Source: Candidatus Brennerbacteria bacterium
GTDB taxonomy: Bacteria > Patescibacteriota > Minisyncoccia > UBA6257 > GWB1-50-10
Assembly (NCBI GenBank): GCA_043799565.1
Contig: JAZDNP010000004.1
Location: forward strand, 1 to 57,816
Reading direction: 5' to 3'
DNA length: 57,816 nt
This document shows positions 5,886-52,730 of the stretch, in pieces (position 1 is the first letter of the stretch; the number at the start of each line of letters is the position of its first letter). The notes below the pieces were generated by a model. The model worked only from the letters and a program-made list of their open reading frames with translations, had not been told where the DNA came from and made no database searches. The position numbers were made by a program, and so were the translations under genes.

Positions 5886-5974
5886 GCGGCCATGGTTCCC
5901 GCCCAAAACGAAGTATTGTGGCGGGTCCGCCTGAATGTCCGCCTTCGGCGGCTTTCGGCGGATAGTGGCAGGAT
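5886..5974 (+). pseudogene. orphan 5' part of tRNA-Gly (nt 1-12 and 13-24) split by a 65-nt hairpin-rich insert
   Basis: GCGGCCATGGTT (5886-5897) equals 6251-6262. TAGTGGCAGGAT (5963-5974) matches 6263-6274 at 11/12. The two blocks are contiguous in the intact tRNA. Confidence 0.75.
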
Positions 5975-5983
5975 GAACTAATA

Positions 5984-6265
5984 ATGTTTTACACGTACGT
6001 TTTGCTATGTGAAGACAGCGCGCGAGGTCGGCGAAAACTTTATGTCGGTTCGACCGATGATTTACACGCCCGTCTCCGAGAACATGAATCGGGGAATGTG
6101 AAAACTACAAAAAGCTTTAGCAAGGTATCGTTAGTGTATTATGAGGCATGCAGGAACAAAAAGGACGCAAAAAAGCGGGAGCTGCAGTTGAAAACAGGCT
6201 TTGGAAGGGGTTACATTAAGAAGCGGATAGAAAGTGACTTAGATAAAGAAGCGGCCATGGTTTAG
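5984..6265 (+). CDS. small GIY-YIG nuclease family protein (93 aa)
   Basis: FYTYVLLC...KLYVGSTDDLHARLREH...YYEAC...KRELQLK pattern (GIY / YIG / Arg / Glu). The last 5 codons overlap the tRNA-Gly 5' end. Confidence 0.85.
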   Translation: MFYTYVLLCEDSARGRRKLYVGSTDDLHARLREHESGNVKTTKSFSKVSLVYYEACRNKKDAKKRELQLKTGFGRGYIKKRIESDLDKEAAMV

Positions 6266-6321
6266 TGGCAGAATACGACCTTGCCAAGGTTGAGACTCGG
6301 GTTCGATTCCCGATGGCCGCA
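6251..6321 (+). tRNA. tRNA-Gly(GCC)
   Basis: GCGGCCATGGTTTAGTGGCAGAATA-CGACC-TTGCCAA-GGTTG, T-arm TCGGG-TTCGATT-CCCGA, acceptor TGGCCGC. Confidence 0.9.
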
Positions 6322-6375
6322 CAAAGCAAAAACTACCAGAAAGGGTACTATAATTAATTATAGTACCCTTTCTGG

Positions 6376-7554
6376 TTACGATATCCTAACCTTTACGAAT
6401 TTTTTCTTCCCTATCTTTAATATGTCGCCATCCCGAATCTCTATCTTTGGGTCGCGTGCCGTTTCACCATTTCGCTTAATTGCACTTTGTGAGAAGAGGC
6501 GTACGGCTTCACTGTTGGAACCCACGCCGGCTGCACGGACGGCCTCCAAGAGTGTCGCACCCTGTTTCACCTTTACCGTATCAACATTGTTCGGCGTTTC
6601 TTTTTTTGAGAACGTTCGTATCCACTCCTCGCGTGCCTTCGCGGCGGCTTTCTGATTGTGATAAAGCTTCACCACTTCGTACGCGAGCGAAAGCTTCGCG
6701 TCGCGCGGATTGCCGTCCCGCTCCATCATTTTTTCAATGTCTTCTATCGCCATCTCGGTGCAAAATTCTGCAACTGGCCTGATTCCTTCATCGGGGAGCG
6801 CCATCAATTTACCGAACATATCATTTGGCTTGTCGTCCAAGCTGATGAGCCCACCCTCACTCTTGTTCATAAGTTTCTTTCCCGTCCTCGGATTTTCCAA
6901 AAGCTTGGTAGTGACAACGAATTTTTCCTTGTTTTTGTATTCACGGAGGAGCTTGCGTCCGGCGAGCATATTGAAGGTTTGGTCGGTGCCGCCAATTTCC
7001 ACGTCCACGTCAAGCGCGACGGAATCGTACCCTTGCATCAAGGGATATAGGAATTCGTGGAGACCGATGGGCTTATCGTTTCTTTTTCTCTCTTGGAACA
7101 TGTCCCGCTCCACCATTTGCTGCTCGGTGAAGTGTGAAGCGAGTTCAATAAGTTTCTCAAACGTCATCTTCGCGTGCCATTTGGAGTTGAATGCGAGTTT
7201 TGCGGCGTTGGTCCCCGAAAAGTTAATTATTTTCGCTGCCTGCTTTTTAAACGTCTTGAGGTTTTGCTTTACCTCGCTTGCGGTGAGCGGCTTGCGTGCC
7301 GCAAGTTTGTCGGTAGGGTCGCCGATGCGTGCGGTGAAGTCGCCGATGAGGAGAATAACTTTATGTCCAAGCGCCTGGAATCTCCGGAGCACGAGAAGGT
7401 TTGTCGCGTGGCCCAAGTGGAGGTGGGGGCCGGTCGGGTCCACACCGAGGTAGACAGTCAGTTTTTTTCCCGACGAGAGCGCTTTTTCAAACGCCTCGCG
7501 CGAAGGGTATATGGTATCAACCGAACGAGTCAGAAGATTGTTGAGCGCGTCCAT
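6376..7554 (-). CDS. tyrS: tyrosyl-tRNA synthetase
   Basis: HLHLGH (HIGH) and KMNKS (KMSKS) motifs. GDFTARIGDPTDK. C-terminal S4-like region. Start trimmed to the ATG at 7554, because the track start at 7584 is TTG. Confidence 0.85.
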   Translation of the reverse strand: MDALNNLLTRSVDTIYPSREAFEKALSSGKKLTVYLGVDPTGPHLHLGHATNLLVLRRFQALGHKVILLIGDFTARIGDPTDKLAARKPLTASEVKQNLKTFKKQAAKIINFSGTNAAKLAFNSKWHAKMTFEKLIELASHFTEQQMVERDMFQERKRNDKPIGLHEFLYPLMQGYDSVALDVDVEIGGTDQTFNMLAGRKLLREYKNKEKFVVTTKLLENPRTGKKLMNKSEGGLISLDDKPNDMFGKLMALPDEGIRPVAEFCTEMAIEDIEKMMERDGNPRDAKLSLAYEVVKLYHNQKAAAKAREEWIRTFSKKETPNNVDTVKVKQGATLLEAVRAAGVGSNSEAVRLFSQSAIKRNGETARDPKIEIRDGDILKIGKKKFVKVRIS

Positions 7555-18011: not shown

Positions 18012-18136
18012 ATGAATCCCGTTAGAAACAACCAAATTTAATGGTTATGCATACCGAAAAACACCTCCGATTGTTTCTAAAGGTCTCGTGTAACATACAC
18101 GGTCGCCTGCAGGCGACCTGTTTCTAACGGGATGAA
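18012..18136 (+). mobile_element. ORF-less mini copy (125 bp) of the ATGAATCCCGTTAGA...TCTAACGGGATGAA element, ending on the pilM start codon
   Basis: 15-bp perfect inverted repeat ATCCCGTTAGAAACA (18016-18030) / TGTTTCTAACGGGAT (18119-18133). ATGAA at both ends. Internal palindrome GGTCGCCTGCAGGCGACC. Confidence 0.8.
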
Positions 18137-23512: not shown

Positions 23513-23797
23513 ATGAATCCCGTTAGAGACAACAAAACTTATTATGTTTACGTCTTGCGTAGCACTAAAGATAAACGCTGGTATACTGGACTTACCGATG
23601 ACCTACGGAAGCGCTTCAAGGAACACAATGCCGGACATGTTGGGTGGACAAACGGACGTGGCCCATTCGAGCTCATCTACTACGAAATGTGTAAAAACAT
23701 CACTGATGCAAGGTCGCGAGAGAAGTATTTCAAATCAGGCATGGGCAAGCGCTACTTGAAGAATCGCTTGAAGCGCTTCCTGTCTCTAACGGGATGA
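23513..23797 (+). CDS. GIY-YIG nuclease family protein (94 aa)
   Basis: MNPVRDNKTYYVYVLRS...RWYTGLTDDLRKRFKEH...YYEMC...REKYFK. Start ATG lies in the left arm. Stop TGA overlaps the pilC ATG (ATGA). The track start at 23495 overlaps pilT and is rejected. Confidence 0.85.
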   Translation: MNPVRDNKTYYVYVLRSTKDKRWYTGLTDDLRKRFKEHNAGHVGWTNGRGPFELIYYEMCKNITDARSREKYFKSGMGKRYLKNRLKRFLSLTG

Positions 23798-23798
23798 A
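23513..23798 (+). mobile_element. autonomous-looking copy (286 bp) of the inverted-repeat element, carrying a GIY-YIG ORF, inserted exactly at the pilC start codon
   Basis: 15-bp perfect inverted repeat ATCCCGTTAGAGACA (23517-23531) / TGTCTCTAACGGGAT (23781-23795). ATGAA at both ends. Confidence 0.85.
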
Positions 23799-34678: not shown

Positions 34679-34974
34679 TTGCGGGGGCGGGAATTGAACC
34701 CGCTGCCTTCTGGTTATGCATCTCGCTACGGCTTTCGCCGCCTCCGACATAAAGTCGTGAGTTTGCGGTCTGGACTATACCTTCACCCCTAAGGGTGCTC
34801 GCCGTCTAGTCTCTACACCTTGTCGCGCGAGGCGACCTTGGCTCGGTATTACCATTTCTCGAATTGAAAAGAAGGCTTCACCGAGTTTGACGAGTGTTCC
34901 ATGAATCCTTTCGGAATCATGAGCCCAAATTGAGCCAGGCGTGCAACCGTTACACTTCCCCGCGGAAAAAGTAT
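34679..34974 (-). tRNA. initiator tRNA-fMet(CAT) interrupted by a 224-nt group I intron in the anticodon loop
   Basis: Exon 1 (34974-34943): CGCGGGGAAGTGTAACGGTTGCACGCCTGGCT. Exon 2 (34718-34679): CATAACCAGAAGGCAGCGGGTTCAATTCCCGCCCCCGCAA. C1:A72 mismatch and A73 as in bacterial initiator tRNA. The spliced loop would be CTCATAA. Confidence 0.85.
34719..34942 (-). ncRNA. group I intron (IC3-like, no ORF)
   Basis: The 5' exon ends in U and the intron ends in G. P2 is CATGATTCC-GAAA-GGATTCATG. Core strings CCGAGCCAAGG and AAGGTGTAGAGACTAGACGG...CCTTAGG...GGTATAG closely resemble the Azoarcus tRNA-Ile intron core as I recall it. Confidence 0.85.
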
Positions 34975-35054
34975 AGCAGTTCGCCTTTGAAACGCAAGCG
35001 AGAAAAAATACCAGCGGAAATGGTACAATTACCTATGTAACGTAGGTATCAAAC

Positions 35055-40306: not shown

Positions 40307-40413
40307 ATACCCCGTTCAAAGTAGTAGTTCAACGGAAAAATTTACTCGCGGTTGTATAGCGTGTGTTTATACGAAGCTTCAGAACCCAAACCCAAAACTT
40401 TGAACGGGGTTAT
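40307..40413. repeat. inverted repeat ATACCCCGTTCAAAGT / ACTTTGAACGGGGTTAT enclosing about 75 nt (MITE-like or structured RNA)
   Basis: Arms at 40307-40322 and 40397-40413 (15-16 matching positions with one indel), between the recG start and the tRNA-Lys 3' end. Confidence 0.55.
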
Positions 40414-42037: not shown

Positions 42038-42083
42038 GAACGAGACGTTTCCTTGTTCCGCATTCAATGTACAATGAGAAATG

Positions 42084-42197
42084 ATGAATCCCGTTAGAAA
42101 TTGTGGTGCTATTCATCCTATACGCATGAACTATTCAATACTATATCCTGCGAACATCAAGCAGTCGAGCATGCCCTACTATTTCTAACGGGATGAA
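42084..42197 (+). mobile_element. ORF-less mini copy (114 bp) of the inverted-repeat element, ending on the cca start codon
   Basis: 14-bp perfect inverted repeat ATCCCGTTAGAAAT (42088-42101) / ATTTCTAACGGGAT (42181-42194). ATGAA at both ends. Confidence 0.8.
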
Positions 42198-43647
42198 GTT
42201 CAATGTTCCGAAGGAAGTGAAGACCGTTTCGGAAACGCTCCAAAAGAATGGCCACCAGGCGTATCTGGTGGGCGGGTGCCTGCGTGATCTTCTCCTTAAG
42301 CGTGAACCGAAGGACTGGGATATCGCGACGGACGCGCGTCCCGAGGAGATCCAGAAATTATTCCCGGAGAGCGTCTACGAGAACACGTTCGGCACCGTGG
42401 GTGTGAAGACGGAATCCGACGACCAGAAGCTCAAAGTGGTGGAAGTAACGACGTTCCGCATTGAAGGCCACTACACCGACCTTCGCCACCCCGATGAGGT
42501 GAAGTTCGCGAAAACGATAGATGAGGACCTCTCCCGTCGCGATTTTACGGTGAATGCAATCGCCGCGAACCTGGAAGGCGAGCTCACAGATCCGCACGAA
42601 GGTGCCGCGGACCTCAAGGCGAAGCTCATCCGCGCGGTGGGGGACCCCAAAAGGCGTTTTGAAGAGGATGCGCTCCGGCTCATGCGCGCGGTACGGCTCG
42701 CGGCGGAGCTTGGGTTTGAGATGGAGAAAAATACGAAAGAAGCCATAGCCCACCACGCCGGTCTTCTTGAAGCCATCGCAAAGGAGCGCATCCGTGATGA
42801 GTTCGTGAAATTGATAGAGAGCCCGCGTGCGGCGGAAGGTGTTGTCGCGATGGAAGACCTCGGACTCCTAAAGTTCGTTGTTCCCGAACTCCGCGAAGGA
42901 ATTGGGTGTGGCCAGAACAAGCATCATATCTACACCGTCTTTGACCACAATGTGCGTGCTTTGAATTATGCGGCGGAGAAGGAATACTCGTTTGAGGTTC
43001 GCCTCGCCTCGCTCCTTCATGACGTGGGAAAGCCGAAAACAAAGCACGGCGACGGGCCCGACTCCACCTTCTATAACCACGAGGTCGTTGGTGCGAAGAT
43101 GGCGGCAATTATCATGGACCGTTTGCGGTTCGGGAAGGATGTCACGGAACGTGTGGTGCACCTCGTGCGGCATCACCTTTTCTACTACAACGTGGGCGAG
43201 GTTTCGGAGGCGGGTGTGCGCCGCTTCATCGCGCGTGTGGGGCCGGGATACATCGGTGACCTCCTGAAGGTTCGCGAGGGAGACCGTATTGGTTCCGGCG
43301 TGCCGAAGGCATTCCCGTACAAACTTCGCCATCTCCTCTTTATGATGGAGAAGGTGAAGAAGGACCCCATTCATCCCAAGATGTTGGCGCTCAAAGGCGA
43401 TGACGTTATGAAGATTCTCGGCATCCCCGCGGGTCCTAAGATCGGCAAGATCCTCGGAGTGCTTTTAGAGGAGGTGTTGGATGACCCGAAGCGGAACACC
43501 CGCGGATATTTGGAACCGCGCGTGCGGGAGCTTGCGAACCTGAAAGATGATGAATTGGAAACGCTTGCCCGCGCGGCACGAGAGAAAAAAGAGGAATTTG
43601 AGAGTGGAGTGGAGGATGAGATGAAAAGGAGATACTACGTGAAATGA
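42193..43647 (+). CDS. cca: CCA-adding enzyme (tRNA nucleotidyltransferase with HD domain)
   Basis: YLVGGCLRDLLLKREPKDWDIAT head domain. HDVGK HD motif. 484 aa. Confidence 0.88.
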   Translation: MKFNVPKEVKTVSETLQKNGHQAYLVGGCLRDLLLKREPKDWDIATDARPEEIQKLFPESVYENTFGTVGVKTESDDQKLKVVEVTTFRIEGHYTDLRHPDEVKFAKTIDEDLSRRDFTVNAIAANLEGELTDPHEGAADLKAKLIRAVGDPKRRFEEDALRLMRAVRLAAELGFEMEKNTKEAIAHHAGLLEAIAKERIRDEFVKLIESPRAAEGVVAMEDLGLLKFVVPELREGIGCGQNKHHIYTVFDHNVRALNYAAEKEYSFEVRLASLLHDVGKPKTKHGDGPDSTFYNHEVVGAKMAAIIMDRLRFGKDVTERVVHLVRHHLFYYNVGEVSEAGVRRFIARVGPGYIGDLLKVREGDRIGSGVPKAFPYKLRHLLFMMEKVKKDPIHPKMLALKGDDVMKILGIPAGPKIGKILGVLLEEVLDDPKRNTRGYLEPRVRELANLKDDELETLARAAREKKEEFESGVEDEMKRRYYVK

Positions 43648-48622: not shown

Positions 48623-48654
48623 TAGGCATTAGGCGCTAGGCATTAGGCGTTAGC
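48623..48654. repeat. left arm of inverted heptad-repeat array (TAGGCAT TAGGCGC TAGGCAT TAGGCGT TAGC)
   Basis: Tandem 7-nt units. 27/32 positions are complementary to the right arm at 49007-49038. Confidence 0.75.
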
Positions 48655-49001
48655 TGAGAAATCATGGTATTCAGCATTCTCATAACTCCGTCTAATAACA
48701 ATGAAACTTTGGCACAGTTTTCTTCATTTACCAAGCCGAGTTTCTTTGAGGCCTCAAGTTGAGTTTCTAATTCTCCCCCTGAACCAAACGCAATGAGGAG
48801 AAACTTGCGCAACTCCTTGTCTGAACCCCTTAGTTTTCCCTCGGCGATATTAGAGGGAATTGAAATTGCCGCTCGTCTCATCTGTGAAGTGAGTCCGTAC
48901 AGCTCCTCCTTGGGAAATTTTTCTGTGAGTTTGTACATTTCAACGGTGAGCGTTACTCCTTTCTGCCATACGGTAAGATCCCGGTAAGTATGGGTTTTCA
49001 T
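48636..49001 (-). CDS. four-helix-bundle protein (23S rRNA intervening-sequence protein family)
   Basis: YRDLTVWQKG...FPKEELYGLTSQMRRAAISIPSNIAEG...F...A.GS..ELETQL, a pattern typical of the family. Confidence 0.85.
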   Translation of the reverse strand: MKTHTYRDLTVWQKGVTLTVEMYKLTEKFPKEELYGLTSQMRRAAISIPSNIAEGKLRGSDKELRKFLLIAFGSGGELETQLEASKKLGLVNEENCAKVSLLLDGVMRMLNTMISQLTPNA

Positions 49002-49006
49002 GTTGT

Positions 49007-49038
49007 GCTAATGCCTAGAGCCTAACGCCTAGTGCCTA
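49007..49038. repeat. right arm of inverted heptad-repeat array (GCTAATGCC TAGAGCC TAACGCC TAGTGCC TA)
   Basis: Reverse complement TAGGCACTAGGCGTTAGGCTCTAGGCATTAGC aligns with the left arm. It contains the dnaB stop codon. Confidence 0.75.
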
Positions 49039-50385
49039 CTCTTCTATGTGGCGCGTATCCACATTTTTGAAGCTCACCTTCTCCTGGTCAAAGTGAAGTT
49101 CCACGGAACCCAAAGGACCGTTCCGGTGTTTTGCGATAATGATCTCTACGCGATTTTGGTCCTCCGCCGGCACGTCACCTCGTTCGCGGTCCTTACGGTA
49201 TATAAAGAGCACCACGTCCGCATCCTGCTCGAGCGAGCCGGATTCGCGGAGGTCGGAAAGGCGGGGAATCTTTACCTCACGCTGGTCAACGGCGCGCGAG
49301 AGCTGGGAAACCGCGATGACGGGAATAGAAAGTTCTCGCGCGAGCGCTTTCAGTCCGTGCGATATCTCGGTCACTTGAGTCACCATATTGTCCGAATTGG
49401 TGCGCGACTGGACGAGTTGGAGATAGTCCACAATGACGAGATCCAACCCGTGCTCTATTTGGAGCCGCCGCGCCATGGAACGCATCTGGAGCACGGTAGG
49501 GGATGCCGAGTCGTCAATGAAAAGTTTTGCTTTGGAAAGCTCGTCCAATGCTTGCTGTACCAGTGCGAATTCAAGGTCGTCGGTGAGTTTGCCGGTACGG
49601 AGGCGCCAGAGCGGAATCTGTGCCTGGCTTGCGATAAGCCGGTCCACGATCTGGTCCTTAGACATCTCGAGCGAAAAAATACCGACGGATTTTCCTTGGA
49701 GCGCGACGTGTCGCGCAACGTCCAATGCAAGCGTGGTTTTTCCGTATGAGGGCCGTGCCCCCACAATTATAAGGTCGGAGCGTTGAAGGCCTGAAAGAAT
49801 ATTGTCCAGTCCTGTGAATCCTGTGGGGATGCCTCGGTAACCTCCATGTTCGCCGCGGTGGAGCTTTTCCAGTCGTTCATAGGCACCGGGGAGTTCGCTT
49901 TGCACGGGAATGAATTTCTGCGGCCGCGAGCGCTCCGAAATGCCGAACACCTTTGATTCCACCTTGTCCAAAAGTGTTTCAAAATCATCGGAATCCAGCG
50001 AGAGCTCGTTGATAATGGACGATGCTTCAATAAGGTCGCGGCGCACGCGTTTTTCTTTCACCATTTCCGCATAGTGTTCCACGTGCGCGGCGGTTGGTAC
50101 TTTCTCCACAAGCTCGGTCAAGTAGTCCGCGCCTCCCACCTCCTGCACGAACTTTTTATCTTTGAGGTCGTGAGAGACGGTGAGAAGATCGATGGGCTTG
50201 CCGCGTTCAAAAAGCCCTAAGATGCTCGCATAGATTTTTTGGTGTCCCGGATGGTAAAAGTCCTCGGGCGAAAGCGAATCCGCGATTTTTACTATCGCGG
50301 TTTTGTCCAACATCAATGCGCCGAGTACCGAGCGTTCGGCTTCAAGATCTTGCGGAGGAAGTTTTATTCTTTTTTCCGGTGGCAT
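49036..50385 (-). CDS. dnaB: replicative DNA helicase DnaB
   Basis: PPQDLEAERSVLGALML N-terminus. Walker A GARPSYGKTT. 449 aa. Confidence 0.92.
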   Translation of the reverse strand: MPPEKRIKLPPQDLEAERSVLGALMLDKTAIVKIADSLSPEDFYHPGHQKIYASILGLFERGKPIDLLTVSHDLKDKKFVQEVGGADYLTELVEKVPTAAHVEHYAEMVKEKRVRRDLIEASSIINELSLDSDDFETLLDKVESKVFGISERSRPQKFIPVQSELPGAYERLEKLHRGEHGGYRGIPTGFTGLDNILSGLQRSDLIIVGARPSYGKTTLALDVARHVALQGKSVGIFSLEMSKDQIVDRLIASQAQIPLWRLRTGKLTDDLEFALVQQALDELSKAKLFIDDSASPTVLQMRSMARRLQIEHGLDLVIVDYLQLVQSRTNSDNMVTQVTEISHGLKALARELSIPVIAVSQLSRAVDQREVKIPRLSDLRESGSLEQDADVVLFIYRKDRERGDVPAEDQNRVEIIIAKHRNGPLGSVELHFDQEKVSFKNVDTRHIEE

Positions 50386-51742
50386 GAGGGGTGATGATGG
50401 GTCCTTGCGGCGTATCGTCTACCGTGTATCCTAACGCACCGATACGTGTCCGCAAGGTGTCGGAGAGCGCAAACTGTTTATTACGTCTGCATAACTCGCG
50501 CTCGGAGGCAAGTTTCCTGATTTCTGCGGGGATTGTACGCGGTTTTTTCACATCCTTGAGCCCCAACCCCAGAACCTCGTCGTAGGAAAGGAGGAGCGAG
50601 AGTTTTTCCCGTGGCGCGAGTTTGGTGCTGTTCACCGTGTCCCAGAGGCAGGCAAGCGCGCGTGCGGTGTTGAGGTCGTCGGCGAGCGCGTTATTAAAAC
50701 GTTTTGTGTATGAACGCACTTGCGTGCTCATAGTGTGTGGCGTGTGTGTGCCGCTCCCTTTCAGCGCCGCGACTGCGCGGCGCAATTTTCCGAACGCTTG
50801 TGCTGCCGCGTGGAGCGCATCCCACGTGAAGTTAAGTTGTGTGCGGTAGTGGGCGCCGAGAACGAAGTAGCGATACGCGAGCGGATCCTCGCCGCGCGCG
50901 GCGAGATCGCGGAGCGTGTAAATATTTCCGAGCGACTTGGACATTTTCTTTCCGTCCACGAGCAAGTGTTCGCCGTGAACAAAGTATTTTACGAAAGGTT
51001 TCCCCGTCGCGGCTTCCGATTGTGCAATTTCGTTCTCGTGGTGGGGGAATATAAGGTCTACGGCGCCCGCGTGGATGTCCACGGTTGTCCCGAGGTATTT
51101 CATGCTCATCGCCGAACACTCAATGTGCCATCCCGGTCGCCCGCGTCCCCATGGACTTGGCCATGAGGGTTCTCCCGGCTTCGCCGCTTTCCACAGCACA
51201 AAATCCTGCGCGTCCTCTTTCGCATACTCATCGGAACTTACCCGCGCGCCCTGCTTTATGGTCCGCAGGGCAAGTCGTGAAAGTGCTCCATAGGACTTGA
51301 ATTTCCGTATATTGAAATACACAGAGCCGTCCTCTCCACGATATGCGATTCCACGAGCCGCGAGCTTGGTAATGAGAGTAATGATGGGTTTGATATGGCT
51401 CGTAGCCGCTGGGTAATGGTTGGCGCGCCCAATATTGAGTTTTTTCAAGTCCTTATGGAACGCTTTTGTGAAAGGAGCGGTGACGGCGCGAATATTTTTA
51501 TTCTCACGACGCGCGCGCGCGATTATCTTGTCCTCAACGTCCGTGATGTTCATCACGTGCGTTACCTTGAAATGTTCTCGCAAGAGCACGCGCTTTAGCA
51601 CGTCTTCAAAAAGGTAGGTGCGAAGGTTGCCGATGTGGGCGTAGTTGTAGACCGTCGGGCCGCAGGTATAGAGTCCTACCGTTTTTTTATGGAGAGGCCG
51701 GAACGTTTCCTTTCGCCGCGTGAGGGTGTTGAAAATTTTCAT
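50342..51742 (-). CDS. cysS: cysteinyl-tRNA synthetase
   Basis: CGPTVYNYAHIGN (HIGH region) and KMSKSLGN. 466 aa. 44-nt overlap with dnaB. Confidence 0.9.
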   Translation of the reverse strand: MKIFNTLTRRKETFRPLHKKTVGLYTCGPTVYNYAHIGNLRTYLFEDVLKRVLLREHFKVTHVMNITDVEDKIIARARRENKNIRAVTAPFTKAFHKDLKKLNIGRANHYPAATSHIKPIITLITKLAARGIAYRGEDGSVYFNIRKFKSYGALSRLALRTIKQGARVSSDEYAKEDAQDFVLWKAAKPGEPSWPSPWGRGRPGWHIECSAMSMKYLGTTVDIHAGAVDLIFPHHENEIAQSEAATGKPFVKYFVHGEHLLVDGKKMSKSLGNIYTLRDLAARGEDPLAYRYFVLGAHYRTQLNFTWDALHAAAQAFGKLRRAVAALKGSGTHTPHTMSTQVRSYTKRFNNALADDLNTARALACLWDTVNSTKLAPREKLSLLLSYDEVLGLGLKDVKKPRTIPAEIRKLASERELCRRNKQFALSDTLRTRIGALGYTVDDTPQGPIITPHATGKKNKTSSARS

Positions 51743-51746
51743 CCCG

Positions 51747-52730
51747 TTACTTTGACCAAATCAGCACGATGTCCTCGATGGTCGGCGTGTCCGTTTGGAG
51801 CGTGTTCGTGCGGAGCCGCACCTTGTAGCGAAGGTAGCGCGCGGAGCCGATTTTCTTGTCTACACAGATTGCTTTGTCGGGACCGGCGGCAGACGAAGAA
51901 ATGCCGACAAGCGGGCACTCCACGCCATAGTACCCGCTGGTGCTTGCGCCAGGACCTCGGAAGGTCCAAGGACCTGAAGACGAAGAAGATGTGGCGATTT
52001 GAAAATCAACGGACGTGCCCGAGGGTTGCGAACCTTGCCAGACAATACTTTGGAGCACGCTGCCGCTCGTGAGTTGAGTGTCAAAGACCGAGGATTCAAG
52101 AAATGCATAGGTGGAAGTCGCGCGCCAGGAAGTTGCAACCTTGTAGTCGGAGTCGTTGCAGTCGCCGCCGCCGGTGTTGCCGCAGTTGAAGCTTATCCAC
52201 CCGACGGTGTCATTCCATGCGTAGCCCGATAATTCGCCATTCGCATCTATCGTGACTGCGTAGTCGTTAGGACCAACGCAGGTGTCGGTGCCTCCTTCAT
52301 GCGAAGAGTTGTCGCAGTTGAAACTGATCCATCCAATAGTGTCATTCCACGCGTATCCGGTGAGTTCGCCGGTGCCGTCTCCTGAGTCACATGTGCCGTC
52401 GAGATTTAGTGGATCCTTTGGTCCTGGACCGTTGCAAATGCCGTAGTTTGAAGAACCGCAGATATTTCCCGATGCAGTAGTGGCGCAGTCAAGAGACATA
52501 TCGCCCACCGTTGAGCTCGCGTATCCCTCAATGCGTGTGCCGAACACCGTTACCGAGTCCGTGTTATAGAAATCCCACCATCCATTCACGTCGTCCCATG
52601 CCAGATGTTCGGTAGAGGTTGCGGAAGTGTTGGTTGTGGCGTCTACTCGAAGCGCAGCAAAAAGCGCGAGGAGAAGAGTGATCCCGACAAGTATCCACAG
52701 CGCGATTTTGAGCGGTCTCATCAGTTTCAT
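51747..52730 (-). CDS. secreted protein with GYAWNDTxGWISFNC repeats
   Basis: Trimmed to MKLMRPLKIALWILVGITLLLALFAALRVDA. Two near-identical GYAWNDT(I/V)GWISFNC units plus one degenerate unit. Confidence 0.6.
   Translation of the reverse strand: MKLMRPLKIALWILVGITLLLALFAALRVDATTNTSATSTEHLAWDDVNGWWDFYNTDSVTVFGTRIEGYASSTVGDMSLDCATTASGNICGSSNYGICNGPGPKDPLNLDGTCDSGDGTGELTGYAWNDTIGWISFNCDNSSHEGGTDTCVGPNDYAVTIDANGELSGYAWNDTVGWISFNCGNTGGGDCNDSDYKVATSWRATSTYAFLESSVFDTQLTSGSVLQSIVWQGSQPSGTSVDFQIATSSSSSGPWTFRGPGASTSGYYGVECPLVGISSSAAGPDKAICVDKKIGSARYLRYKVRLRTNTLQTDTPTIEDIVLIWSK

Follow-up and report, generated by a model that had tools for sequence, protein, structure and literature searches.

A very small transposable element on the cca start codon of a Brennerbacteria genome and the GIY-YIG nuclease that may mobilize its family

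A 114-bp segment at positions 42084-42197 lies across the start codon of the gene for the CCA-adding enzyme (cca) in a 57,816-nucleotide stretch of Candidatus Brennerbacteria DNA (forward strand of contig JAZDNP010000004.1, assembly GCA_043799565.1; hereafter the window). We read this segment as a very small DNA transposable element inserted in the first five bases of cca, with a structure-recognising GIY-YIG nuclease as the agent of its movement and with translational coupling to the host gene, and we give this reading as a whole a probability of about 0.7. The element in front of cca, the third copy in the window (copy 3), is a non-autonomous, non-coding miniature of a mobile family, whereas a full-length relative (copy 2) codes for the nuclease. 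The mobility of the family is well supported; from the sequences we infer the part played by the nuclease and the coupling to host translation.

Insertion in front of cca is recorded by an empty site. In the closest cca relative found, locus L003 (loci from other genomes are cited by such handles), cca is 89% identical and the gene order EamA(-)/tRNA-Arg(-)/cca(+)/amidase is the same. The intergenic region of L003 is alignable (...tacaatggagaatgATGAAGTACAAC) and holds a single ATGAA and one clean 109-bp gap (alignment A2), which therefore corresponds to an insertion of 104 bp (42089-42192) accompanied by a 5-bp target duplication. The initial annotation of this DNA, made from its letters, had proposed just such a comparison at the tRNA-Arg/cca junction, and the outcome is positive. 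The features of the locus are as follows.

42070..42075, + strand: host -10-like TACAAT, kept in the L003 empty site and outside the element
42084..42088, + strand: left copy of the target duplication, ATGAA, which aligns with the single ATGAA of the L003 empty site
42084..42188, + strand: 34-codon open reading frame (ORF; MNPVRNCGAIHP...YYF) on the borrowed ATG, of an open-through class enriched across the family
42088..42101, + strand: left arm of the terminal stem, 14 bp, its first base being the last A of the left duplication
42089..42192, + strand: copy 3 element proper, 104 bp (TCCCGTTAGA...TCTAACGGG), the exact gap in alignment A2
42181..42194, + strand: right arm of the terminal stem, ending in the A and T of the cca ATG
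42193..43647, + strand: cca gene, the first 5 nt of which (42193-42197) are the right duplication copy

The sequence features that had been described here from the letters all hold. The segment, ATGAATCCCGTTAGAAAT ... ATTTCTAACGGGATGAA, has perfect 14-bp arms (ATCCCGTTAGAAAT at 42088-42101, matched at 42181-42194 by its exact reverse complement), carries ATGAA on both flanks and ends on the cca ATG, with 42193 as the start of a 484-aa ORF whose PolyA_pol, PolyA_pol_RNAbd and HD domains are those of a CCA-adding enzyme. The TACAAT hexamer is likewise in place, 8 nt ahead of the ATG at 42084, and a second in-frame ATG at 42081 follows it by 5 nt. The left ATGAA occupies the original position of the cca start codon, downstream of this host hexamer, and tRNA-Arg(tcg) lies farther upstream on the opposite strand. 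The 34-codon frame stops at a TAA within the right arm (42186-42188), 4 nt ahead of the cca ATG, and has no homologue; the interior of copy 3 has none elsewhere in the window.

The window holds six perfect inverted repeats of 14 bp or more whose arms start 30-330 nt apart, where 200 block shuffles averaged 0.015, so the repeats are not a product of chance. Folding of the copy 3 strand yields z = -4.1 as RNA and -3.9 as DNA. At the gathering score, Rfam has no match at any copy, the whole window giving tRNAs and one group I intron only, and at E values up to 10 the best matches at the copy 3 locus reach 11-16 bits against cut-offs of 40-74.

Two further copies with the same arms, already reported by the initial annotation, are present at 18016-18030/18119-18133 and 23517-23531/23781-23795. 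Their interiors are unlike beyond the ends, again as reported, apart from a match between copy 1 and the opening 29 nt of copy 2. The copy on pilC had been correctly assigned to the mobile family, although its nature as a protein-coding gene was missed. These copies and a solo end comprise the following features.

18012..18136, + strand: copy 1, a miniature on the pilM start, with ATGAA at 18012-18016 and 18132-18136
23513..23797, + strand: copy 2, full-length, a 94-aa GIY-YIG ORF on the pilC start (translation, PF01541 match)
23517..23531, + strand: left arm of the copy 2 outer stem, pairing with 23781-23795 and coding for NPVRDN against LSLTG
23607..23620, + strand: left arm of the copy 2 inner stem (GGAAGCGCTTCAAG), pairing with 23767-23780, which adjoins the outer right arm
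51738..51749, - strand: probable solo right end (TAACGGGATGAA), lying at the start codon of gene 50342-51742(-)

Copy 2, the likely autonomous member, consists of its gene. The element proper (23518-23793) is 276 bp, or 92 codons; the left duplication (23513-23517) supplies ATG and AA, and the right duplication (23794-23798), which is the pilC start, gives the final A of Gly94 and a TGA stop that overlaps the pilC ATG. The encoded protein reads MNPVRDNKTYYVYVL...RFLSLTG, and its first codons, AAT CCC GTT AGA GAC, are the reverse complement of its last, TCT CTA ACG GGA T. Copies 1 and 3 are miniature derivatives that retain only the ends. The element proper of copy 1 (18017-18131, 115 bp) contains a subterminal hairpin at 18101-18118, and its ORF stops after 9 codons. 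Besides the terminal arms it has an internal, degenerate third arm (TTGTTTCTAAAGG, 18071-18083), which suggests a composite or internally duplicated miniature. The solo arm TAACGGGATGAA at 51738-51749(-) is probably the remnant of a decayed start-codon element: by our own arithmetic a 12-mer match such as this is expected about 0.007 times per window, and the upstream neighbour of the gene at 50342-51742(-) ends on the TAA of the arm.

The family extends well beyond this contig. A scan of one genome per species (596 Gb) with the pattern ATGAATCCCGTTAGA returned at least 120 stretches, and the 120 listed contain 107 two-armed elements, 104 of them in other genomes and three in the window. Chance 15-mer matches are expected in 596 Gb, and those in Psychrobacter, Bacteroidia, Synergistaceae and others lack a right arm. 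Among the matches listed, the hosts of two-armed elements are mostly Patescibacteria (Paceibacteria-type groups, Saccharibacteria and Levyibacteriota), and a CCT/AGG subfamily occurs in metagenome-assembled genomes (MAGs) of Omnitrophota and Planctomycetota. The length from ATG to GGGAT ranges from 35 to 506 nt across the 107 listed elements, with a mode of 112-128, and about five are full-length. GAA directly follows the right arm in 103 of them, and in about 90% the right-hand ATG opens an ORF of at least 50 codons; upstream of the element, and downstream past base 5, these elements show no conservation.

Recent activity is evident from three near-identical miniatures on three genes within 8 kb (L095) and from tandem insertions at L082, L013 and L109. 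The viral collection holds no relatives of the 94-aa protein, and tblastn against phage records gave only matches below 40% identity. The two-arm DNA pattern retrieved three stretches from viral collections (two distinct, L141 and L143 being the same), which we rejected as chance palindromes without ATG flanks. We also observed that miniatures occupy the start of seemingly the same gene in two Sedimentisphaerales MAGs and one Patescibacteria MAG (L083, L098, L116); it encodes 671-782 aa and, judged from its N-terminus only (MKISLNWLK / MKVNLSWLQ), may be pheT.

The flanks identify the duplication as a true copy of host sequence. Elements of the same loci that were found without a constraint on the flank include ATGAG|..|ATGAG (gene MRNIPEY...), ATGGA|..|ATGGA (gene MERTYNF...) and ATGTA|..|ATGTA (gene MYVIPAID...), and the variants ATGCA(A) and ATGG were also found. 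Each flank matches the host's own second codon, and therefore bases 4-5 come from the host and were copied leftward. Consequently, start and stop codons are both missing from the element proper (TCCCGTTAGA...TCTAACGGG). The left flank ACTTG|TCCCGTTAGA, without ATG, recurs in unrelated genomes (L014, L052, L007, L034); the right end of such elements still adjoins the ATGAA of a gene, and the simple duplication model does not account for them.

At the pilC start, occupancy differs among relatives. A full-length copy occupies it in the window and in L125 (PilC 67% identical) and a 114-bp miniature does so in L024, while L126/L127 have no insertion there (ATGAAATTTAAA); the metagenome scan with PilC gave eight loci only. 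In relatives, pilM begins with a sequence other than ATGAA and has no element at its start, which therefore cannot be used as an empty site for copy 1. The initial annotation had noted ATGAAGTTCAA directly 3′ of both the cca and pilC copies, which is borne out as sequence, and proposed from it a target preference or a co-mobilised flank. We reject both proposals, as the 107 listed elements conserve nothing past ATGAA (at most 0.3 bit per position) and the empty cca site (ATGAAGTACAAC) and empty pilC site (ATGAAATTTAAA) speak against them. The 11-nt match is host sequence, since the cca and pilC proteins both begin MKFN.

The ends of the elements conserve pairing in addition to sequence. The terminal stem has a median of 14 bp among the 107 listed elements, with 11 outer pairs fixed. 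Positions 12-14 are fully complementary in 88 of them, through 16 different triplets, compared with 11.5 +/- 3.1 when partners are shuffled; these positions thus covary, with pairing rather than sequence conserved. The two ends are not equivalent, a point that the initial annotation missed: conservation at the right end reaches further inward, with WCCT ahead of the arm and, ahead of that, either a small GG...CC hairpin or a second helix formed with sequence just inside the left arm.

A related architecture is predicted for full-length copies, where RNAalifold applied to seven of them gives the outer stem and a 14-bp inner stem adjoining the outer right arm. Compensatory, mostly synonymous changes affect two outer-stem pairs and five of the 14 inner-stem pairs. 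For example, AAT to AAC is matched in L139 by GGA to GGG, and the host start becomes GTG. Synonymous divergence per site is 0.47 in stem codons and 0.82 elsewhere. The asymmetry typical of RNA, in which G:U is tolerated and A:C is not, is absent from the miniatures (11 versus 7), and the full-length stems have almost no G:U, their pairing being nearly pure Watson-Crick. The lack of a G:U excess leans, though not decisively, towards a fold in DNA.

The ORF of copy 2 matches PF01541 with E = 1.8e-16 (60.6 bits against a cut-off of 22.6). Homologues form 3535 clusters; 95 of the 120 best-scoring are exactly 94 aa, and these best 120 have near-invariant MNPVRD and LSLTG ends and, where named, come mostly from Patescibacteria. 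Tyr11/Tyr13, Tyr24-x-Gly26, Arg32, His38 and Glu58, catalytic positions by alignment only, are invariant in 26 sequences, and dN/dS values (nonsynonymous over synonymous substitution rates) of 0.11-0.21 reveal purifying selection. By these sequence criteria the ORF is functional. Both MNPVR (AAT) and MSPVR (AGT) N-termini occur among homologues because ATG+NN comes from the left host duplicate.

The genes that follow full-length copies are pilC, an NTP-transferase gene, a GT4 glycosyltransferase gene and smpB. In every case examined the downstream gene overlaps by ATGA, since the right duplication supplies the stop. Full-length elements contain no ORF other than the GIY-YIG gene, and no DDE, HUH (Y1 TnpA), serine or tyrosine transposase was found in them; nor does a transposase gene accompany these copies.

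Comparisons of sequence and predicted structure place the 94-aa protein in the Slx1/UPF0213 lineage rather than the UvrC/homing-endonuclease branch. With phmmer, UPF0213 BH0048 (1zg2) is matched at E = 2.4e-9, and EF2693 is also matched. An AlphaFold (AF2) model (pLDDT 87.9) retrieved 1zg2 and eight Slx1 chains first in Foldseek (TMq 0.58-0.63), with I-TevI and UvrC at 0.47; the best structural match is 7cq3_A (TMq 0.63, root-mean-square deviation 1.9). No domain besides the catalytic one is present in the 94 aa, and TIGR01453 scores 21.7 bits against a cut-off of 56. A caveat on this placement is that Asn84 is invariant in the family, since a C-terminal Asn is reported to be absent in Slx1 (PMC1564403). 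The structures 1zg2 and 1ywl have been classed as bacterial Slx1-family proteins that are minimal and mainly vertically inherited (Dunin-Horkawicz et al., PMC1564403), whereas the same authors trace the selfish GIY-YIG enzymes to the UvrC lineage.

The window holds one more GIY-YIG ORF, a divergent one at 5984-6265 (93 aa, with 40% identity to that of copy 2). Its stop falls inside tRNA-Gly (6251-6322), and a partial copy of about 22 nt of the 5′ part of this tRNA (GGCGGATAGTGGCAGGATGAAC) lies directly upstream of the ORF. The region 5957-6322 looks like a related element inserted in the 5′ part of a tRNA gene, with duplication.

How the occupied genes remain expressed is suggested by the sequence around the borrowed start codon. 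Among 96 listed elements, 15 have TANNNT at a peak 6 nt ahead of the element ATG, compared with a background of about three. Copy 3 has TACAAT at 5 and 8 nt from its two upstream ATGs and copy 1 has TAGAAT 7 nt ahead; a simple scan for promoters gave no complete -35/-10 pair ahead of either copy. A subset of host genes is probably leaderless, the 5′-terminal AUG now being that of the element, and copies 1 and 3 fit this arrangement. In 41 of 89 miniatures at start sites the frame of the borrowed ATG is open to the arm TAA, to an ATGA overlap or to an in-frame fusion with the host gene. Shuffled interiors gave 13.3 +/- 2.9 such cases (maximum 25 in 1000 shuffles), and the other two forward frames gave 12 and 15. 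This excess supports termination-reinitiation as one route by which the host gene is kept expressed.

The association with start codons is marked within the window itself. Three of the ten ATGAA sequences at crudely called starts are occupied, compared with none of the 144 genic ones; for the 19 intergenic instances, element sequence is confined to the left duplicate and interior of copy 3 itself. The insertion step may recognise ATG, or the bias may stem from survivorship, considered below. In some relatives tRNA-Arg immediately precedes cca and shares its strand (P0125, P0128, P0132; L001 9915-10003). The cca of L001 is called at its ATGAAA start (P0123, 484 aa), and three other cca homologues have a spurious N-terminal extension of about 22 aa, MDITTAFEAV..., which equals the translated tRNA sequence; gene callers have evidently read through the tRNA there.

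Taken with the structure of the elements, these observations suggest a possible route for movement and persistence. The left host copy of ATG+NN supplies the start of the element, and the right copy (ATGA) its stop, leaving the start of the host gene intact. The ends pair as a 14-15 bp stem with a second helix or small hairpin adjoining the right arm, a fold that could arise in single-stranded or cruciform DNA. The structure-selective nuclease may then recognise this fold and cut at the stem base, mobilising full-length and miniature copies alike. Slx1 cleaves branched DNA 1-3 nt 3′ of the branch point (PMC6902002), and cuts after ATGAA at both ends would lie 1 nt (left) and 3 nt (right) 3′ of the branch points at the stem base. 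A cut at this position is favoured because it is the sole register of six that fits the 1-3 nt rule. Once inserted, the element would borrow host initiation signals, either a leaderless 5′ end or a Shine-Dalgarno sequence, and the host gene would be translated by termination-reinitiation at the overlapping or adjacent ATG. Borrowed initiation and reinitiation would in turn allow start-codon insertions to be tolerated and kept.

A broader proposition, to which we assign slightly less than an even chance, is that the family represents a kind of prokaryotic transposable element not recognised before, which at 276 bp would rank with the smallest autonomous ones. Its sole protein would be a 94-residue, Slx1-type structure-selective GIY-YIG nuclease acting on the element's own folded ends, its start and stop would both come from a duplicated host start codon, and its many miniatures would extend across Patescibacteria and reach Omnitrophota and Planctomycetota. 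No published description of such an element was found, although coverage of the literature was incomplete, with most subscription journals outside it, and novelty is thus unproven.

Several points weigh against the reading that we favour. GIY-YIG enzymes hydrolyse DNA and form no covalent intermediate, and strand joining would therefore need host ligase or repair; to our knowledge, a 5-nt staggered duplication is no known product of this fold. A catalytic domain of 94 residues also has no obvious way of recognising ATG, and the start-codon bias could instead reflect survivorship, insertions elsewhere being possibly lethal or soon deleted. The rationale for survivorship would be that the duplication restores the gene, that imprecise deletion is lethal and that full-length copies gain expression. 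The predominance of ATGAA among targets is in part imposed by the ATGAATCCCGTTAGA seed, and a few elements have no left repeat (L014 and L052, with the recurrent ACTTG, and the second element of L094, with ATTCT). Early stops in about half of the miniatures, copy 1 included, indicate that coupling is not the whole story, and a stable stem starting 1 nt past the borrowed ATG should impede initiation. Finally, the signal for pairing in DNA comes from 11 G:T and 7 A:C mismatches, which are small numbers.

The same evidence bears on other explanations. Spread by homing, in which a free-standing GIY-YIG homing endonuclease breaks empty sites and its gene is copied in by double-strand-break repair or microhomology, is unlikely in our estimation. 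On this account the repeat and inner helix would act mainly in mRNA, throttling translation of the nuclease and coupling it to the host gene, and the stable predicted RNA fold of the strand would suit such a function. GIY-YIG is indeed a classic homing-endonuclease fold, free-standing endonuclease genes of T-even phages have overlapping stop/start codons and regulatory hairpins (PMC2988022), and the pilC site is filled even where PilC is only 67% identical. However, the occupied genes are many and unrelated and have only ATG+NN in common, which points to transposition rather than to one cognate site, and homing does not predict non-coding miniatures with conserved ends that spread between loci and genomes. 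Moreover, the protein is without a DNA-binding domain and groups with Slx1 instead of homing endonucleases or UvrC, and the stems have no excess of G:U over A:C.

Somewhat less probable still is that the family consists of ordinary MITEs (miniature transposable elements with inverted repeats) moved by an unrelated transposase encoded elsewhere, for instance a DDE enzyme that makes 5-bp duplications, the GIY-YIG ORF being a passenger or chance gene within the same ends. Terminal inverted repeats, the 5-bp duplication, many short copies and an empty site are all typical of MITEs, and strand transfer is hard to explain by GIY-YIG chemistry. A passenger would not be expected to fill the element exactly, with arms that are its first and last codons and a start and stop drawn from the duplication, nor does this account fit the retention of that architecture in all full-length copies seen, the 3535 homologue clusters and the purifying selection. 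Recognition of fixed ends would not need covarying stem positions, and full-length copies are unaccompanied by a transposase gene. A non-mobile, conserved cis-regulatory leader before certain genes, whether an RNA hairpin or an upstream ORF, is very improbable. Co-orientation with the gene on its start codon is invariable, and there is a stable hairpin and often an open short ORF, as such a leader would have. This alternative, which the initial annotation had raised as an operon-leader motif, is refuted by the empty orthologous site in L003 with its precise 5-nt repeat footprint and by over a hundred copies in other genomes. Unrelated genes in several phyla are occupied, single genomes carry tandem and near-identical copies, and the interior lacks conservation and belongs to no Rfam family.

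Other features of the window involve repeats and tRNA genes. Two hairpin elements of about 103 bp from another family, with 14-bp arms GGGCCGTTCGAAGT and ACCCCGTTCAAAGT, are located at 1550-1652 and 40309-40410. The former is flanked by a 7-nt direct repeat equal to nt 1-7 of tRNA-Arg(gcg); the latter has TATAA on its flanks, is situated between tRNA-Lys and a recG-like gene and is missing from L003. Their arm motif CCGTTCRAAGT was absent from all 140 loci searched for it. A group I intron at 34685-34975 (-) (Rfam RF00028, 50.2 bits, barely over the cut-off of 50) resides in the anticodon loop of a tRNA-like gene with CTCAT context, probably a CAU anticodon, that ARAGORN did not call. A perfect 21+21-nt palindrome lies at 6335-6376, immediately past tRNA-Gly, and TAGGCATTAGGCG-type repeats in inverted orientation flank the ORF at 48636-49001(-) on either side (48623-49038).

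Known enzyme classes for bacterial transposition are DDE, DEDD, HUH, serine, tyrosine and Cas1. If the nuclease drives mobility, the family would add a new class to these and would show that the Slx1 branch of GIY-YIG nucleases, hitherto regarded as housekeeping repair enzymes, can also be put to selfish use. There is much economy in the design: a single ORF runs from end to end, the terminal sequences serve as codons too, the target duplication lends both start and stop, and the host gene is still expressed. Such elements offer a clean system for learning how mobile DNA targets, or survives only at, translation start sites. Their presence on many start codons in the small genomes of Patescibacteria is of practical concern as well, as they confuse start calling and produce spurious MNPVR... 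mini-ORFs and N-terminal extensions. They are also presence/absence markers for strain tracking, and a compact nuclease that is guided by structure and acts on a defined hairpin may serve as a tool.

Among known systems, bacterial MITEs such as Correia/NEMIS of Neisseria and MITEAba12 resemble copy 3 in being short and non-coding, with terminal inverted repeats, a target duplication, many dispersed copies, a larger relative with the same ends and co-transcription with a neighbouring gene. Structurally, copy 3 is a MITE in every respect except that its putative autonomous partner lacks a recognised transposase: the larger relative codes only for a 94-aa GIY-YIG nuclease, which is no known transposase type. 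Also unlike these MITEs, members of the family always duplicate the host start codon together with 2 nt, keep one orientation with respect to the gene and have variable stem positions that covary. UPF0213 (BH0048/1zg2, EF2693/1ywl) and eukaryotic Slx1 share with the nuclease its sequence, predicted fold and minimal catalytic domain without auxiliary domains, and structure-selective cutting near branch points suits the substrate that the element's stems would build. Members of that lineage are described as vertically inherited repair enzymes (PMC1564403), whereas here the gene is a multi-copy insertion with coding ends that form an inverted repeat.

The seg genes of T-even phages likewise are small selfish nuclease genes wedged among co-oriented host genes, with overlapping stop/start codons and hairpins near the start (PMC2988022). 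However, seg proteins have DNA-binding domains and one cognate site each, and their genes lack terminal inverted repeats, target duplications and miniature derivatives. IS200/IS605 elements with their PATEs, and REP/RAYT systems, are comparable in their very small size, folded hairpin ends, short specific sequence, fixed orientation and abundance of hairpin-only derivatives beside a single small gene. These systems differ in using HUH tyrosine transposases and subterminal pairing, in making no target duplication and in residing mostly outside coding starts. In the family described here the flanking repeat is on both sides and changes with the host (ATGAG, ATGGA, ATGTA), in contrast to the fixed sequence and absence of duplication that characterise IS200/IS605. 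The family thus fits no known insertion-sequence type, homing-endonuclease gene, IS200/IS605-PATE or REP/RAYT system.

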